Shown: one piece after another, positions 39,227 through 46,021 of the stretch
Layout of the letters: every line of letters starts with the position of its first letter
Position numbering within the stretch: the first letter of the stretch is position 1
Origin: Candidatus Latescibacterota bacterium
Lineage (GTDB): Bacteria; Latescibacterota; UBA2968; UBA8231
Length of the DNA stretch: 64,000 bases
Reading direction: 5' to 3'
Assembly: GCA_965203175.1 (NCBI GenBank)
Contig: OZ241867.1
Location: 4,224,001-4,288,000, forward strand
Notes under the pieces: model-generated
What the model was told of the DNA's origin: nothing
Seen by the model: only the letters and a program-made list of their open reading frames with translations
The model's database searches: none
Translations under genes and position numbers: made by a program

Positions 39227-40108
39227 TTACGCTTTTTGGCTGAGCGCTTGAATCAGCGTTCCCAAATTGTGCTCGAACATCTTCTCGTAGCTGGTCGCCG
39301 GGCTGCCGCGTTCCGAGAGCGCGTCGGAGAACAGTCGGCCACCGATCTGAATTCCGGTTTCGTGCGCGATCTGCTGAATCAGGGATGGGCTGGTGATGTT
39401 CTCAACGAACAGTGCGCCGGCGCCGACGGCCTTCAAGTGATCGATCAGCTTGGCGAGGTCTCGTGCCGACGGCTCGGCATCGGTGTCGATCCCGACCGGG
39501 GCCAGAAATGTGAGCCCATAGGCTGCCTCCAGATAGCCAAAGGCGTCGTGGGCGGTCACGACCGTACGCTGGCCGGCGGGCAGTCTTTTGAGTTGGCCGA
39601 GCGCGCGGTCGTGTAATGCCTTTAGTCTCGCGGTGTAGGCGCGGGCATTGGCCTTGTAGGCTGCCGCGTTTTGCGGATCGGTTTCCGCCATGCCATCCGC
39701 AATATTGGCGACATACTTCATGCCGTTTGTGAGCGAGTTCCAGGCGTGCGGGTCGATTGCGCCGTCAACCTTCAAAGGCGCTATGCCATCCGTCGCGACG
39801 AACACTTTGGCCTGGGTAGCGGATGTCTCGATCAGGGTTTGCGACCAGGTCTCGAAGCCCAGACCGTTGACAAAGATCACCTCGGCGTTGGTCACTGCTT
39901 TGGCGTCGGCCGCGTTGGGGGTGTAAACGTGCGCATCCGCGTCCGGGCCGACAATGGTTGTCACCTCGGCTAAATCGCCGGTGACCTGGCGCACCATATC
40001 GCCGAGGATGGAGAAGCTGGCGACGACCTTGATTCTGTCCTGGGCGGCCGCCGGGATTGAGGTCAACGCCAGGCCCGCTACCAGCAGTGCGCTGAAGAGT
40101 TGTTTCAT
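39227..40108 (-). CDS. Metal ABC transporter solute-binding protein (AztC/ZnuA cluster A-I)
   Basis: VASFSILGD, DAHVYTP, DPHAW, HDAFGY, SDALS. Confidence 0.92.
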   Translation of the reverse strand: MKQLFSALLVAGLALTSIPAAAQDRIKVVASFSILGDMVRQVTGDLAEVTTIVGPDADAHVYTPNAADAKAVTNAEVIFVNGLGFETWSQTLIETSATQAKVFVATDGIAPLKVDGAIDPHAWNSLTNGMKYVANIADGMAETDPQNAAAYKANARAYTARLKALHDRALGQLKRLPAGQRTVVTAHDAFGYLEAAYGLTFLAPVGIDTDAEPSARDLAKLIDHLKAVGAGALFVENITSPSLIQQIAHETGIQIGGRLFSDALSERGSPATSYEKMFEHNLGTLIQALSQKA

Positions 40109-40120
40109 GGTTTTTTGCTC

Positions 40121-40999
40121 CTACATTGAGTTTCTGTTGATGGTCAGAGGTTCGCGGCGGTACGGGTTGAGGCGTGCGCCGACCTGAAATCCTTGCGGTG
40201 CGAAGATCAGGCTGAAAAAGAAAAAGACCGCCGCAACCAGCACGATTGCGGGACCTGAAGGCACGTCCGACAAATAGAACGAAACGATCAGCCCGATCCA
40301 GCCGCTCAGCAGCGCGAATATGAAGGTAACGATCAAATAGCCGGTGATTGTCGAGACCCAATAACGCGCCGCCGTCGCCGGCAGGATCATCAGCCCGACC
40401 GCCATCAGCGTGCCGAGCGCCTTGAAGGCGCCCAACAGATTGAGCACGACCAGAAACATGAACCAGTGGGCCACGAGGCCTGGGTGCTTGGACTGGCTCT
40501 CATGGAAGACCGGATCGATTGTACTGATGATCAGCGGCCTGATGATCAGCGCGAAGCTCACCAATGTGATTGTAGCCGTCATCCCGATCAGCAGGAGGCT
40601 TTCGTCGTTGATGCCGAGGATCGAACCGAACAGGAAACTCTTCAGCGGCACCGCCGAGCCGGCGGCGGACAGGATGAAGATGCCGAGGGCGAGGGCGGTC
40701 AGGTAGAGCGACGCCAGACTCGCATCCTCGCGGATGATTGTCATACGGGCGAGCAGGCTGGTCAGCGCGGCGACGGTGATACCGGCGGTCAACCCGCCAA
40801 CGATCATGGATCCCACCGACAGACCGGCAATCACGAAAGCGATGACGATTCCCGGCACAATAGCGTGAGCCATCGCCTCGCCGGCGAGCGACAGACGCCT
40901 GAGCACTAGGAATGCTCCGACCGGGGCGACGGAGAAACTCAACACCGTCGTCGCGGTCAGTGCCCGGACCATGAACGCGTAGTCGAGCCACTCAAACAT
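40121..40999 (-). CDS. Metal ABC transporter permease (AztB/ZnuB-like)
   Basis: LRRLSLAGEAMAHAIVPG, FLFGSIL, PSGPAIVL; ATG 40999. Confidence 0.92.
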   Translation of the reverse strand: MFEWLDYAFMVRALTATTVLSFSVAPVGAFLVLRRLSLAGEAMAHAIVPGIVIAFVIAGLSVGSMIVGGLTAGITVAALTSLLARMTIIREDASLASLYLTALALGIFILSAAGSAVPLKSFLFGSILGINDESLLLIGMTATITLVSFALIIRPLIISTIDPVFHESQSKHPGLVAHWFMFLVVLNLLGAFKALGTLMAVGLMILPATAARYWVSTITGYLIVTFIFALLSGWIGLIVSFYLSDVPSGPAIVLVAAVFFFFSLIFAPQGFQVGARLNPYRREPLTINRNSM

Positions 41000-41753
41000 C
41001 GTCTGCTTTCGATTGCGAGTACATGTTTTCGATCCAGGCGGCCTGACTTTGCGACAGGTACCGGTGAACGACCAGATTGTCGGGCGTAAGCGTTTCTTTC
41101 GGGGCACCGAAAAGCGCGCGGCCATCTCCCAGGAGAAGCGCTGAGCCGCAATGTTGTAGAACGGCGGAAAGGTCGTGCAGAACGAGGATGATGGTGCGTC
41201 CTTCCGCGGCCCAGTGATCGATCAGCGTCAGCAGAGCCGCTTCCGTTGTCTGGTCGACGGCCGTAAACGGCTCATCCAATAGGATCAGCGGCGCATCCTG
41301 AACCATGGTCCGGGCAAATAGCGCCCGTTGCAGCTGACCCGCGGATAGTTTGTGCAAGGGCATATCGGCGATCTCGGCGGTGCCTGTGCGCTCGAGCGCG
41401 CACCCGATCCGAGCCCGGCACTCGCTATCGATGCGGCCGAGAAACCCCAAGTTGGGCCAAGCACCCATTGCCGCTAGGTCGCGGACCCGGATGGGAAAGC
41501 GGCTGTCGAACTCGGTCCTTTGGCCTAGATAAGCAATTGTCGGTGGCCGCCCGATGGGCCAGTTGAGCGTACCGGCAAGCGGCGGCAAGGTGCCCAACAG
41601 TGTTTTGATCAGGGTCGATTTTCCCGATCCGTTGTGACCGACAACAGCAAGCACATCGCCGAGCGCAAGGTTGAACGCGACGTCTTCAGCGACGGTCTCG
41701 GTCCCATAGCCGAGCGAGAGTCCAGTTGCCGAAAGGAGCATTGGATTCGCCAT
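40992..41753 (-). CDS. Metal ABC transporter ATP-binding protein (AztA/ZnuC-like)
   Basis: GHNGSGKST, LSAGQLQR, LLDEPF, VLHDL. Confidence 0.92.
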   Translation of the reverse strand: MANPMLLSATGLSLGYGTETVAEDVAFNLALGDVLAVVGHNGSGKSTLIKTLLGTLPPLAGTLNWPIGRPPTIAYLGQRTEFDSRFPIRVRDLAAMGAWPNLGFLGRIDSECRARIGCALERTGTAEIADMPLHKLSAGQLQRALFARTMVQDAPLILLDEPFTAVDQTTEAALLTLIDHWAAEGRTIILVLHDLSAVLQHCGSALLLGDGRALFGAPKETLTPDNLVVHRYLSQSQAAWIENMYSQSKADDV

Positions 41754-41768: not shown

Positions 41769-41906
41769 TCAGATGCCGAGGGTCGCGATGATGATGACCC
41801 AGAGTCCTGCGCAGGCAACGCTGACTGCAATCAGATAATGGAGCGTACTGGCAACTGTAAGATCGAATCCCGCCAAGCTTTGAGTCTGTAAGTTTTGCGA
41901 GCTCAT
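41769..41906 (-). CDS. 45-aa single-TM small protein heading the ABC operon (below the ORF-track cutoff)
   Basis: MSSQNLQTQSLAGFDLTVASTLHYLIAVSVACAGLWVIIIATLGI, translated by hand. Confidence 0.65.
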   Translation of the reverse strand: MSSQNLQTQSLAGFDLTVASTLHYLIAVSVACAGLWVIIIATLGI

Positions 41907-43205
41907 AAAAACCTCGCGTGAGACCGTCGCCTTTAGGCGATGGAGGGATAGCGATTCAATCGGCGAGAGGCGGCTTGCCCGCCTTTAGCCGGTTGAAATC
42001 TGTTGTAGAAAGGTTGACACGGCTTCTTGTAGAGATTGTATTTATCTCTATGAAGAAGGTGATACAGATACAGCTTAAGCCTACCCCTGAGCAAGCGGCT
42101 GCGCTGGAGAAGACGATGCGTCGATTCAACGAGGCGTGTAACTGGCTGGCTGTTCGCGCTTTTGAGCGCAAGCTGGCCAATCGCTTTGGCTTGCACAAGC
42201 TGTATTACTACGAACTGCGTGAACGCTTTGGCCTGCCTGCTCAGATGGCCTGTCTGGTATCGGCCAATGTATCGGCCGCCTACAAGCGGGACACCGCCAA
42301 GCCAGTGTCCTTTCGTCCCTTGGCGTCGATGCCCTATGACCGGCATCTGCTGCGCTACCAAGACCTGACTACGGTCTCCATGTCCACGTTGGATGGGCGC
42401 ATCAGCCTGCCGATGGTCATGGGCGCCTATCAGGCCGAGCAGTTTGCCCAAGTCAAATACTACGCCGAACTGGTGCATCGCAAAGACGGCCAGTGGTTCC
42501 TTATGGCTGTGGTCGAGACCGATGACCTGCCGCCGCTGGATACCGACGACTTCCTCGGCGTTGATCTGGGGGTCGAGAACCTTGCCACGGACTCCGACGG
42601 ACAACAGCACTCGGGCGAGGACGTAGAGCAGGTGCGCGTCAAGCACCAGACGCTCAAGCAAGCCCTTCAATCGGCGGCTGATTTGGCGGCTAATGCTCGG
42701 AAGCGCAAGCGCATCCGTAAGAAGCTCAAACGTATCGGCGATAGAGAAGCACGCTTTCGCCGCAATACCAACCACTGCCTCTCTAAGCGAATCGTTGCGA
42801 AGGCTAAAGGCACTCTGAGAGGGATAGCCCTCGAAGACCTCAAGGGCATCCGACAGAGAACCCGGTTTCGCAAGCCGCAACGTAACCGCATGGATAGCTG
42901 GGGATTCGACCAGCTTCGCCAGTTTGTCCGCTACAAGGCGGAGCAAGCCGGCGTACCGCTCAAGATTGTCGATCCCAAGCATACCTCTCAGATGTGTTCG
43001 CAGTGTGAACATGTCGAAGCGGCTAATCGCTCCTCTCAGTCTCGGTTTCGTTGTAAGCAGTGTGGATATGCCGTCCATGCCGATTACAACGCCGCCCGGA
43101 ACATCCGGGCCAGGGCTCTTGTCAGCGAGCCTATAGTTTCAAGCTACTCCGCTGCGGCGGGGTAGCTTAGGGACAAGCCGCTCGCTTTAGCCGGCGGTGG
43201 TTGAC
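41907..43205 (+). mobile_element. IS200/IS605-family tnpB-only (IS1341-like) element
   Basis: Left subterminal hairpin 41924-41943, right hairpin 43177-43198 ending GGTTGAC, no TSD, inserted 3' of TCAT. Confidence 0.82.
42050..43165 (+). CDS. tnpB: RNA-guided endonuclease TnpB
   Basis: RuvC residues in GVDLG, LEDL and ADYNAARNI; zinc finger CSQC/CKQC. Confidence 0.95.
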   Translation: MKKVIQIQLKPTPEQAAALEKTMRRFNEACNWLAVRAFERKLANRFGLHKLYYYELRERFGLPAQMACLVSANVSAAYKRDTAKPVSFRPLASMPYDRHLLRYQDLTTVSMSTLDGRISLPMVMGAYQAEQFAQVKYYAELVHRKDGQWFLMAVVETDDLPPLDTDDFLGVDLGVENLATDSDGQQHSGEDVEQVRVKHQTLKQALQSAADLAANARKRKRIRKKLKRIGDREARFRRNTNHCLSKRIVAKAKGTLRGIALEDLKGIRQRTRFRKPQRNRMDSWGFDQLRQFVRYKAEQAGVPLKIVDPKHTSQMCSQCEHVEAANRSSQSRFRCKQCGYAVHADYNAARNIRARALVSEPIVSSYSAAAG

Positions 43206-43328
43206 TATTCTCTCTTTCAGGGGTATGGCCACTGGGTTCCCTGTTATGCATTCCGCCTTCGGCCTCAGGACACCAAGCTACTGCCCCATAGCAACCCTCT
43301 CCCCATCGCTCAACCTGGACTGACCTCC

Positions 43329-43358
43329 AATGATATTCTATTATCATTAAGTAGTCAA
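43329..43358 (-). promoter_or_regulatory. Promoter with Fur-family-like operator C (native ABC-operon promoter)
   Basis: AATGATAT-TCTA-TTATCATT (43329-43348); TTGACT-N17-TATCAT on the minus strand. Confidence 0.75.
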
Positions 43359-43414
43359 CCCAACTCGGGCGGATAGGAATGTTTCTGTTGCCCTCTAGAT
43401 CACCATGCGCCTCA

Positions 43415-43757
43415 AAGCCAGCCGATGCGTACTCCGTTATCAGCATGATGAAGTCCGCCGGTCACAGCCAGCGCGCCCGGACATGGACCAATGTCGGCTT
43501 TGCCCTTCTGTGCCCGGTAGTGGCCCTGGCGAGCTTTGGGGGGTGGAATTGCTTGGCCCGGAAGAAGGGGCGGTGATCGGCTATGTGCTGTCCTTTGCGG
43601 CGGGCGCGTTTTTGTGCATTGCCTTGAGCGACCTGTTACCAGAGATTCATTTCCACAGCCACGATCGCGGCAAGCTCATCGTGTCCCTCCTCGTGGGAAT
43701 CAGTCTCGCCTATGTACTTTGAATCCAGCACCCTTTATGGCGCACGAAGGGCATTAG
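43415..43757 (+). pseudogene. 3' fragment of a ZIP transporter, frameshifted
   Basis: Inverted copy of about 15289-15648 with a 1-nt deletion in a G run near 43540. Confidence 0.85.
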
Positions 43758-43822
43758 CTATATCGCTACCTTCTGCCCGGTCTGCACCGACTCAATTTTC
43801 TTCAAACTGGCCCCGACTGATT

Positions 43823-46021
43823 TTGAGGTTCGTACCTGTACTCGGCCTAGCAGTAAGTTCCGCTTGGGGCGACCAGACTGGCACTCTAGCTGGCCACGTG
43901 ATCGACGCCGAAAGCGGTCAACCCGTCGGTTGGACTACCATCGTCATTGAGGGGCTCGAACGAGCGCGGATGAGCGATGCCGAGGGGTACTTCTTCTTCG
44001 CCAACGTACCCGCTGGCGCGCACGTCTTGCAAAGCCTACACGTCGGCTACCGCGAGGAGCGCTTTAAGGTCGAGATCGTCGCGGGAGATACCACTCATGT
44101 CGATCTGGTTATCGGCCACGAGTCCCTGCATGTAGATGAGATCCTCGTCGAAGGCGAACGCAAGATCCCTGCTTCTCCACTCCAAGCACCCGAAGTCGTC
44201 TTCAGCGGCAGCAAGCTGCGGCAGAATTTGAGCCGCACCATCGCCGAGACCATCGCCTACGAGCCGGGCATTGCCCAGCGCTCGATGGGGCCCGCGCCTG
44301 CGCGTCCGGTGCTGCGCGGGCTGGGCGGCGACCGCTTGCTGATGGTCGAAGACGGCGAGCGCACCGGCGATTTGTCTGCTACCTCTTCGGACCACGCCGT
44401 AGCCATTGAGCCAATGACCACCGAGCGCATCGAGGTCGTGCGCGGCCCTCGCACCTTGCTCTACGGCTCCAATGCCTTGGCCGGGGTCGTCAACGTGGTG
44501 CGCGGGTACGTGCCCTCCGAGCGACCCGACGGCTTGGGGGGAGCTGTGACGTATCAGGGGGAGAGCGTCAACCGAGGTTTGTCCGGCGGCCTGACCCTCG
44601 AACAGGCACTCGGCCCACTGGCCCTGCGCTTCGACAGTAGTCTGCGCAATGCCGACGATATTGCCACGCCGCGTGGAGTACTCACCAATACGGATATCCG
44701 CACGGGCAATGCTTCAGTCGGCCTGAGTCTGGTTCGTCCTTGGGGGCATGTAGGCGCGTCCGGCAGCTTATACGACTCCGACTACGGCATCCCTCCCGAC
44801 CCAGAGGGCGGCCATCCGCACGGCGTATCCATTGATCTCCAACGCCAGCATCTCGAAGGGCGCGGCGAAATCCTCACCGGGCCGGACTGGCTCCAGCGCT
44901 TAGAACTGCACCACTCGTTTTCGCGCTATCAGCACGGCGAATTCGAAGCTAGTGGCGACTTGGGGATGGAGTTCGGCGTGCTCACGCACAACAGCGGTGT
45001 GCTGGCCCACTTGGATCGCATGGGGCCTTTTGAAAACGGTGCGATTGGCTTGTGGTACGAGTACCGCAACTATGCCGCGGCCGGGCTTAACTTCACGCCG
45101 CCGGCCGAGGAATATGCCGGTGCTCTTTTCACGTACCAGGAGTGGGAGCATGGGCCTTGGGCGGCCAATGCGGCCTTGCGCGTTGATGCCCGCCGCGTCG
45201 AGCCAAGAGAAGAGCGCGACGCGCGCAGGGTCGGCAGCATCCAGACGCGCGATTTTGCCGGTATGTCTGCCGGTCTGTCCAACCACTATCGCGCCAACTC
45301 GACCTTGACGCTGGGTACGACCTTGATGCGCACTTTTCGCGCTCCTGGTATCGAAGAACTATTCTCCGAAGGGCCGCATTTGGCTGCCTATTCGTACGAG
45401 GTGGGCAATGGTGCTCTCGGCAGCGAACGTGGCTTGGGACTGGAGCTGTTCGCCGACTACCACCGCGAAGAAGGCCATGTACACGTGGCCGTCTTCCGCA
45501 ATGCGATCAATGGGTTCATTTTTCCCAAGAACAGCGGTGAGCACAGCTTGCGGCGCGCCGATCTCTTTCTCTATCGGACTGTGGGGGAGCGCGTCCTCAT
45601 GCACGGCGCCGAAGCCAACTTTGATTGGCATCTGGTGGAGCCTTGGAAGGTGGCTGGCACCCTCAGCTATGTGCGCGGTCGTCTCATTGATCTCAACGAC
45701 GAACCCCTGCCGCGTCTGCCGCCCCTACAAGGGCATCTGGGCCTGACTTGCGAACCCACTGAGGCGCTGAGTGCGACCATTGACGTGCGCTTGGCTGCGG
45801 AGCAGAACCGGATCGGCGAGTTTGAAGAGCCTACGGAGGGCTACGCAGTGCTGGATTTTTCAGGTCAGTACTATGCGGAGTGGGGGGGACGGTTGCACAC
45901 CTTCTCCTTGACCTTGGAAAACGCCACTGACGCGGTGTACCGCAATCACCTCAACCGCGTCAAAGAGATCCTGCCCGAGCCAGGCCGCAATCTGCGCCTG
46001 CTGCACAAGATATTCTTCTGA
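43823..46021 (+). CDS. TonB-dependent receptor (ZnuD-like), copy 2
   Basis: Highly similar to 19808-22048; likely TTG start giving MRFVPVLGLAVSSAWG; start uncertain. Confidence 0.88.
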   Translation: MRFVPVLGLAVSSAWGDQTGTLAGHVIDAESGQPVGWTTIVIEGLERARMSDAEGYFFFANVPAGAHVLQSLHVGYREERFKVEIVAGDTTHVDLVIGHESLHVDEILVEGERKIPASPLQAPEVVFSGSKLRQNLSRTIAETIAYEPGIAQRSMGPAPARPVLRGLGGDRLLMVEDGERTGDLSATSSDHAVAIEPMTTERIEVVRGPRTLLYGSNALAGVVNVVRGYVPSERPDGLGGAVTYQGESVNRGLSGGLTLEQALGPLALRFDSSLRNADDIATPRGVLTNTDIRTGNASVGLSLVRPWGHVGASGSLYDSDYGIPPDPEGGHPHGVSIDLQRQHLEGRGEILTGPDWLQRLELHHSFSRYQHGEFEASGDLGMEFGVLTHNSGVLAHLDRMGPFENGAIGLWYEYRNYAAAGLNFTPPAEEYAGALFTYQEWEHGPWAANAALRVDARRVEPREERDARRVGSIQTRDFAGMSAGLSNHYRANSTLTLGTTLMRTFRAPGIEELFSEGPHLAAYSYEVGNGALGSERGLGLELFADYHREEGHVHVAVFRNAINGFIFPKNSGEHSLRRADLFLYRTVGERVLMHGAEANFDWHLVEPWKVAGTLSYVRGRLIDLNDEPLPRLPPLQGHLGLTCEPTEALSATIDVRLAAEQNRIGEFEEPTEGYAVLDFSGQYYAEWGGRLHTFSLTLENATDAVYRNHLNRVKEILPEPGRNLRLLHKIFF

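Follow-up and report, generated by a model that had tools for sequence, protein, structure and literature searches.

What becomes of a gene when a transposon lands on its first codon? The question is raised by a stretch of 64,000 nucleotides from a Candidatus Latescibacterota bacterium (assembly GCA_965203175.1, contig OZ241867.1, positions 4,224,001 to 4,288,000; "the window" below means this whole stretch), in which a tnpB element of the IS200/IS605 type is inserted exactly at the ATG of a small open reading frame (ORF) that heads a znuCBA-like operon. A preliminary description had proposed that the element limits harm by bringing its own ribosome-binding site, or that it acts as a reversible switch. 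We find that about half of the related copies with a YCAT-type target (Y, pyrimidine) sit on start codons. The explanation we favor, with a probability of roughly 60%, is that start-codon insertions are tolerated and other intragenic ones mostly are not, so that the former accumulate.

The element and its target

Deletion of window positions 41907-43205 had been predicted to restore a native upstream region followed by ATG, and this is exactly the arrangement found in related genomes. The coordinates of the 1299-bp insert were verified against the sequence, and 40 relatives were searched for the locus. The left flank was matched at full length in five genomes of the same genus (G010, G003, G014, G012 and G022). 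The right-flank match starts at the very next base in all five, the purine-rich native upstream stretch directly abutting the ATG. Since the flanks abut exactly in 5/5 empty sites, the insert measures exactly 1299 bp and caused no target duplication. Empty forms also occur in public sponge-metagenome runs: contigs of runs X2 and X16 contain the empty joint (41906 joined to 43206, 1299 skipped), and the empty form is also present in a contig of a third run. A second copy, 91% identical, loses similarity at the same terminal bases as the window element, whose terminus at 43205 reads ...GTTGAC. The target TCAT is the reverse complement of ATGA, as described earlier, and its coordinates were confirmed.

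The encoded TnpB matches Pfam families PF07282 (4e-23) and PF01385 (1.6e-10), with Cas12f1-like TNB and OrfB_IS605 domains, and it aligns to solved TnpB and Cas12f chains. The catalytic residues D172, E262 and D345 and the four zinc-finger cysteines are invariant among 16 related sequences. Together with the empty sites, the Pfam domains bear out the original assignment to an IS200/IS605-type tnpB element inserted seamlessly 3' of TCAT. The window element itself carries no tnpA. A search for this gene in trans found two Y1 tnpA genes (PF01797) elsewhere in the same genome, on separate elements whose left ends align with those of the tnpB-only copies and share their design; the genome holds six copies of the window tnpB family. 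We conclude that the element is a non-autonomous, IS1341-like, tnpB-only member of the IS200/IS605 group with a YCAY target.

Related copies keep a similar left-end architecture, as the preliminary description had anticipated: a linker of 16-22 nt is followed by a 4-nt guide, an 8-bp GC-rich hairpin (P1) and a purine-rich tail. Among 39 diverse left ends, compensatory changes were seen in 7/9 consensus pairs of P1. In the same set, position 4 of the guide matches position 4 of the target in 34/39 cases, and position 2 of the guide matches position 1 of the target in 35/39. The guides GAGA, GAAA and GATA go with TCAT, GGGA with CCAT, and GAAG and GATG with TCAC. This covariation indicates that the 4-nt target is read by base pairing with the guide beside the left-end hairpin, in a geometry that is putative. 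It should be noted that the covariation evidence covers the left-end hairpin only; the right-end hairpin was seen by eye in all copies inspected. The right flank, consisting of the native 5' untranslated region and the purine-rich stretch before the ATG in antisense, is, as in known TnpB systems, the expected, putative guide portion of the omega RNA. The element and its flanks gave no Rfam match at E<=1.

Some further observations concern the element family. Eight tnpB matches or end fragments, of the window family and related ones, cluster within 0.30-0.40 Mb of contig G000:C1 (near 317, 331, 333, 354, 363, 372, 400 and 403 kb), beside the single 16S rRNA gene at 303.6-305.2 kb. The tnpB matches in genus g2 were mostly flagged as having one internal TAA, near the C-terminal end of the alignment, which probably marks where a slightly shorter protein naturally stops. 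Two elements, L011 (tnpA plus tnpB, G000:C1 330.3-332.7 kb) and L075 (tnpB-only, G006:C239), occupy the same site, which lies just past a terminator and about 10 nt before a probable TTG start; both of their flanks are alike. Their tnpB cargo is only about 30% identical, and the shared site is either a hot spot or the result of a cargo swap between shared ends.

Start codons among related insertion sites

To place the window element among its relatives, we assembled 91 independent insertion sites from three collections, 64 of them YCAT-type and 27 CAC-type. The genus set (A) came from a family-level search of 76 genomes, in which 11 genomes of a single genus yielded 30 tnpB matches at E<=1e-100. 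Recognisable left ends were present in 27 (the other 3/30 were dropped), giving 26 independent sites, 22 with a YCAT target. The metagenome set (B), obtained by scanning with a 16-sequence alignment, comprised 80 loci of 30-58% identity. We examined the 57 that include the tnpB start (23/80 do not and were left out) and placed the junction in 36 (24 CAT-type, 11 CAC-type, 1 TAT); the remaining 21/57 were unassigned on account of a contig end, a tnpA upstream or an ambiguous end. For the phylum set (C), 168 genomes were searched, of which 33 had hits, and 39 further copies were examined. Four with no or an atypical left end were dropped, and the 35 junctions placed correspond to 32 independent sites (18 YCAT, 14 CAC). 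The genomes surveyed include metagenome-assembled genomes, which are possibly chimeric. Sites within one subfamily were counted as independent events, and left-end types are related to one another.

Junctions in sets B and C and some of those in set A were placed by rule and our own reading, empty-site comparison not being the basis. Automatic finders based on a hairpin rule mis-called many left ends, and the final junctions include hand-chosen offsets from candidate lists. From each junction codon the opposite strand was translated, and ORFs of at least 40 codons were scanned against Pfam. A start was called supported if a profile aligned from its first positions near residue 1, if a signal or lipoprotein peptide followed the Met (by eye), or if a very long ORF had no upstream in-frame start. 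A mechanical rule (ORF of at least 60 codons, at most 30 codons from the first in-frame start) was of no use in a genome so rich in GC: an ORF of at least 60 codons opens at 41% of random RTGR sites (R, purine), and 13% of these sites pass the rule, which also misses true starts such as the one in the ATGA stop/start overlap occupied by copy c2 (see below).

By these calls, 31/64 YCAT-type sites lie on supported start codons (12/22, 8/24 and 11/18 in sets A, B and C, respectively), a strong enrichment of the kind predicted earlier; three more long ORFs without a family were kept out of the count. Profile-supported starts include Amidohydro_2 (residues 3-270 on profile positions 1-282), RmlD_sub_bind (1-283 on 1-258), Dala_Dala_lig_N (5-125 on 1-121), HpcH_HpaI (5-223 on 1-221), Histidinol_dh (22-428 on 3-410) and Sulfatase (12-336 on 1-301). 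By comparison, CAC-type sites, the complement of the rarer GTG starts, fall on a supported start in only 1/27 cases, plus one long ORF without a family, which fits a motif-driven pattern. A side observation was made by eye on the left ends of TCAC-type subfamilies (L173/L196 and L183, phylum set). These begin with bases that create an in-frame TAA, and where such an element lies in the last codons of a co-oriented gene, the gene stops one or two residues later with no run-on.

How unexpected is the YCAT figure? The genome of the window contains 87,592 ATGR and 96,841 GTGR sites. A greedy longest-ORF gene map gave 5,018 genes (92% coding), with 6,698 ATGR sites in uncovered DNA, and between 1,791 genes (longest-ORF starts) and about 2,800 (our upper estimate) begin with ATGR. 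Start codons therefore make up 2-3.2% of all ATGR sites. Under a survivor null in which all intergenic insertions are harmless and all other intragenic ones lethal, starts would account for 21-29% of non-disruptive sites. The observed 31/64 departs from the all-site figure with P = 3e-29 and from the two survivor figures with P = 1e-6 and 8e-4. In the two whole-genome sets (A and C) taken together, 23/40 sites are on supported starts (P = 1.6e-4 vs. the 29% survivor null). We are highly confident that the identity of the element and the enrichment at start codons are both real.

Clearly intragenic insertions were noted at only 3/58 independent sites of the two whole-genome sets. One, L015, interrupts a DNA methylase in the window's genome at an internal Met, as judged by Pfam (profile positions 162-217 of 221), and two, L181 and L184, interrupt plus-strand genes (by eye). 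Many related copies are intergenic or lie in 5' leaders. The scarcity of intragenic insertions shows that selection has filtered the copies, and that those on start codons passed the filter. In the mechanism we propose, TnpA acting in trans from the two tnpA-bearing elements would mobilise the tnpB-only element, and its single strand would be pasted 3' of a YCAT read by the left-end guide. YCAT reads on the other strand as a start codon followed by a purine, so that all ATG-purine starts are legal antisense targets, and insertion at the back of the start codon leaves the whole ORF intact. The native upstream region would be replaced by the element's first ~15 nt, an A/T-rich spacer often preceded by a purine-rich motif like a Shine-Dalgarno (SD) sequence, and the host promoter would have to read 1.3 kb antisense through the element. 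Start-codon copies would then persist and disruptive ones be purged. With an active site that is intact, TnpB, together with its omega RNA, might by analogy also re-cut the restored empty site, with the start codon as its transposon-adjacent motif (TAM).

A first alternative is active targeting, in which integration prefers translation-initiation regions beyond the 4-nt motif, possibly because these are A/T-rich unstructured single strands or because the sequence 3' of the target resembles the start of the element's left end. Both 31/64 and 23/40 exceed even the generous 29% null, and several of the non-start sites lie 10-45 nt upstream of a start in antisense (by eye: L075 and the tnpA-bearing copy at its site, L179, L201 and L209). 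The covariation we see, however, involves the tetranucleotide only. Moreover, if half of the intergenic insertions were harmful, the survivor null would rise to about 45% and explain the data. Nor was a replication-orientation bias seen: the lagging template carries the top strand in 3/6 copies, with strands assigned from the cumulative GC skew (origin near 1.98 Mb, terminus near 4.49 Mb) and the origin uncertain. Since survival alone could reach about half if many intergenic insertions are harmful, targeting beyond the tetranucleotide, as the preliminary description had it, is inseparable here from the survival of harmless insertions, and we consider it rather unlikely.

Whether by targeting or by selection, start-codon insertions must, on the evidence of the genes found behind them, be well tolerated. 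The ddl gene behind L174 (G161), hisD behind L067 (G012) and hisG behind L203 (G065) are full length, intact and directly behind the element, and each is the sole match to its family in its own genome (98, 94 and 75% complete, respectively). Because these single-copy genes remain intact, it is reasonable to suppose that genes behind elements are translated with the element present. Copy c2 (L013, G000:C1 ~316.9 kb) is inserted where an ABC ATPase gene and a zinc-ribbon/UVR-motif gene share an ATGA as stop and start. By eye, the insertion deprives the upstream gene of its TGA and would extend it by six codons to a TAA in the loop of the element's right-end hairpin, so that both overlapping genes would stay open.

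A second alternative, compatible with our explanation based on tolerance, assigns the enrichment to retention by TnpB. If the TAM is the host start codon and the guide matches the upstream region, the host could neither mutate nor delete the target so as to evade re-cutting once the element has excised, and copies at the starts of needed genes would be lost more slowly than intergenic ones. TnpB looks catalytically competent from its conserved residues, the geometry makes the TAM coincide with the ATG and the presumed guide with the native upstream region, and elements do precede single-copy ddl, hisD and hisG. On the other hand, the omega RNA search gave no Rfam match, the cleavage activity and TAM of this clade are putative, and many of the genes occupied at their start (binding proteins, sulfatase, PhyH) are not evidently essential. 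We regard retention as distinctly unlikely to be the cause of the pattern.

The left end as a candidate ribosome-binding site

The preliminary description held that the left end supplies a replacement ribosome-binding site, and at the window locus it does read GAGG, five T and ATG on the gene strand. At every junction the 20 nt before the junction codon, on the gene strand, derive from the element. A stretch of SD consensus of at least 5 nt, 3-12 nt from the codon, is present in 14/51 left-end types, whereas random RTGR sites have one upstream in 5.3% of cases and antisense tnpB in 3.4%. With a threshold of at least 4 nt the figure is 24/51 vs. 20%, and set C alone has such a motif in 6/13 types. 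The window copy carries GAGGT at a spacing of 4 before the ATG, and the 16S rRNA of the genome ends with the usual CCUCC. The enrichment of an SD-like motif at proper spacing is thus supported, but at either threshold the motif is confined to the minority of left-end types just given, and its bases also make up one side of a conserved second stem, P2.

P2 encloses the guide and the hairpin, and shows many compensatory variants between subfamilies in 33 left ends. Within a left end, linker and tail share a longest Watson-Crick run of at least 6 in 17/33 cases, vs. 5.3% of cross pairs, and of at least 5 in 25/33, vs. 23% of cross pairs. We know of no such second stem in IS608-type ends. The SD-like reading may be a side effect of P2, have been exapted from it, or both, and we judge the chances that the left end functions in translation to be evenly balanced. 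A separate idea, that the stems and T run make the left end an intrinsic terminator on the gene strand, found no support: the terminator scan made no call and the RNA fold does not form it.

Several points weigh against our overall explanation and should be set out together. An SD-like motif of at least 4 nt is absent from 27/51 left-end types, some of them on start codons. The native upstream regions of the hosts carry a canonical SD of at least 4 nt in only 6/19 cases. The linker is constrained by P2, which could explain its conservation without a role in translation, and the predicted mRNA fold puts the window SD and AUG in a local hairpin (z-score -1.3, not significant). No sigma-70-like outward promoter was found in the window element, and L174, the copy before ddl, has no convincing one. 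Support for the window's host ORF is itself weak, as is its coding constraint (see below). The supported-start calls are our own, made from Pfam coverage, by-eye signal peptides and ORF length without a gene caller, and set B alone (8/24) is not above the survivor null. Lastly, the runs searched are assembled contigs, which are uninformative on transcripts or their direction.

A third alternative involves no adaptation at all: the SD-like end would be a by-product of P2, the start position an accident of the motif, and the host genes poorly expressed or on their way to being lost. The reality of P2 (own linker-tail runs as above), the lack of an SD-like motif in about half of the left-end types and the weak constraint on the window ORF are in its favor. 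It is difficult to reconcile with the full-length single-copy ddl, hisD and hisG genes behind elements and with the rarity of clearly intragenic insertions, and we find it highly doubtful.

The host operon and comparison with known systems

The features of the window locus are collected in Table 1. The 45-codon ORF whose ATG is at the insertion point is open in all six close sequences, with 2 synonymous-only vs. 8 amino-acid-changing codons among them, and so displays no coding-type constraint; in the next gene, the corresponding numbers are 13 and 10. It matched no Pfam family. Its protein has matches in two other genera, at 91% identity (residues 1-45) and 57% (residues 11-45, E 7e-8), and is a probable small membrane protein.

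Table 1. Features of the insertion locus (window coordinates; strand relative to the window)
Feature	Position	Strand	Basis or remarks
ZnuA-type binding protein	39227-40108	-	Pfam ZnuA
ABC-3 permease	40121-41125	-	Pfam ABC-3
ABC ATPase	40992-41753	-	Pfam ABC_tran
Downstream operon	39227..41753	-	Pfam ABC_tran, ABC-3, ZnuA
45-codon ORF with ATG at insertion point	41769..41906	-	heads znuCBA-like operon
Target tetranucleotide TCAT	41903..41906	+	complement of minus-strand ATG (41906-41904) plus first base of codon 2
Whole tnpB-only IS200/IS605-type element	41907..43205	+	empty sites and 91%-identical second copy
Left-end linker	41907..41919	+	minus strand: GAGG (41915-41912), five T (41911-41907), host ATG
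Stem P2, 5' strand	41913-41917	+	DNA fold; pairs with 41963-41967
Guide tetranucleotide GAGA	41920..41923	+	just 5' of hairpin foot; covaries with target
Left-end subterminal hairpin P1	41924..41943	+	8-bp stem including one G-T pair, loop TTTA
Stem P2, 3' strand	41963..41967	+	DNA fold; pairs with 41913-41917
tnpB, 371 aa	42050..43165	+	RuvC Asp172, Glu262, Asp345 and four zinc-finger Cys all present
Right-end hairpin and terminal bases ending TGAC	43178..43205	+	hairpin 43178-43197, loop TTTA; same end in other copies
Right flank: native 5' untranslated region and purine-rich pre-ATG stretch (antisense)	43206..43225	+	sequence and empty sites; putative guide portion of omega RNA
Native promoter-like site TTGACT, 17-nt spacer, TATCAT	43329..43358	-	promoter scan

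The native promoter-like site would lie about 120 nt upstream of the ATG when the site is empty; the element now puts 1.3 kb between promoter and operon. A 7-6-7 palindrome spotted by eye overlaps this site and is Fur/Zur-box-like, which would make a regulator of the Fur/Zur type plausible. The scan found no promoter-like or terminator-like site within the window element. From this geometry, transcription from the metal-regulated promoter would run antisense through tnpB, in agreement with the preliminary description. The RNA-library run X16 contains one contig with the empty-site joint and another, of 1151 nt, that runs from the host flank across the left-end junction into a different copy of the element. 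These could be read-through transcripts or DNA carry-over, and, their strand being undefined, were not counted as evidence of transcription. On the far side of the promoter, between it and a TonB-dependent receptor gene (43712-46021), is an ORF of 105 aa (43405-43722, plus strand). Its match to the profile of ZIP zinc transporters covers only the end (positions 266-316 of 323) and falls below the Pfam cut-off; it resembles a ZIP gene that has been truncated or is very short.

That the element is a domesticated, TldR-like guide-RNA-directed regulator, or the reversible excision switch proposed earlier, controlling the metal-uptake operon, is very improbable: it does lie between a Fur/Zur-box-like promoter and an ABC uptake operon, and occupied and empty forms both exist in nature, but its catalytic residues are intact, it is multicopy with complete transposon ends, its absence from 5/5 close relatives holding the locus points to a recent insertion rather than a fixed regulator, and the empty forms come from other strains or samples, not from switching, presence and absence varying between strains and samples and contigs being unable to reveal excision.

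How does the element compare with known systems? IS608 and ISDra2 transpose by the single-strand peel-and-paste pathway of the IS200/IS605 family, and IS608 picks its target by means of a left-end guide. Like them, the present element has subterminal hairpins and no inverted repeats, inserts 3' of a fixed tetra- or pentanucleotide without duplication, carries tnpB at its right side and has its target read by a guide 5' of the left-end hairpin. It differs in its target (YCAY rather than TTAC or TTGAT), in the presence of about half of the YCAT-type copies on starts, in the second stem enclosing guide and hairpin, and in that most copies here lack tnpA. IStrons are spliced out of the mRNA and so restore it, and Tn7, which lands behind glmS (attTn7), thereby spares genes. 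The present insertions would likewise leave host gene function intact, but here the ORF is preserved by insertion at its first codon, and the end of the element would replace the upstream signals.

A closely similar motif has been described for ISGst5 of Geobacillus stearothermophilus, an IS200/IS605 element with IscB, whose TAM/target is TTCAT and right-end motif TTCAC, and whose nuclease re-cuts the empty donor site (10.1101/2023.03.14.532601). The nuclease there is IscB instead of TnpB, and the available portion of that report mentions neither start-codon insertion nor an outward ribosome-binding site. The TldR proteins, nuclease-dead repressors derived from TnpB, are likewise TnpB relatives near transporter or flagellin genes with a guide toward the upstream region, according to the accessible part of PMC10705468; the element described here, by contrast, has an intact catalytic triad and complete transposon ends, is multicopy and is absent from close relatives. 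Another report (10.64898/2026.09.24.754181) concerns, in the part that was available, Arc repression only. A full-text search, with subscription-only papers and ISfinder outside its reach, turned up no account linking IS200/IS605 elements to start codons.

The common view of transposons is that they persist between genes or by rare luck. Here, insertion occurs at the most sensitive base of a gene without destroying it, by an apparent rule that combines a 4-nt target mirroring the start codon with an element end able to replace the lost upstream signals, and the hosts include essential genes such as ddl. This would, if confirmed, be a new strategy of harm avoidance beside self-splicing IStrons and safe-site transposons, and would account for some of the distribution of TnpB elements in genomes. 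Annotation would also be affected, because genes apparently severed from their promoter and ribosome-binding site would still be live. For TnpB-based tools, it would offer a natural compact module of the "insert here, keep the gene" type, with a TAM at every ATG-purine start. In a bolder version, which we put forward tentatively and think rather unlikely, a widespread clade would be specialised in parking on starts: its guide would hold a target complementary to ATG or GTG plus a purine, its left end would be a portable translation-initiation region and the start codon an unmutable TAM. Copies at needed genes would then be both harmless and nearly impossible to lose.

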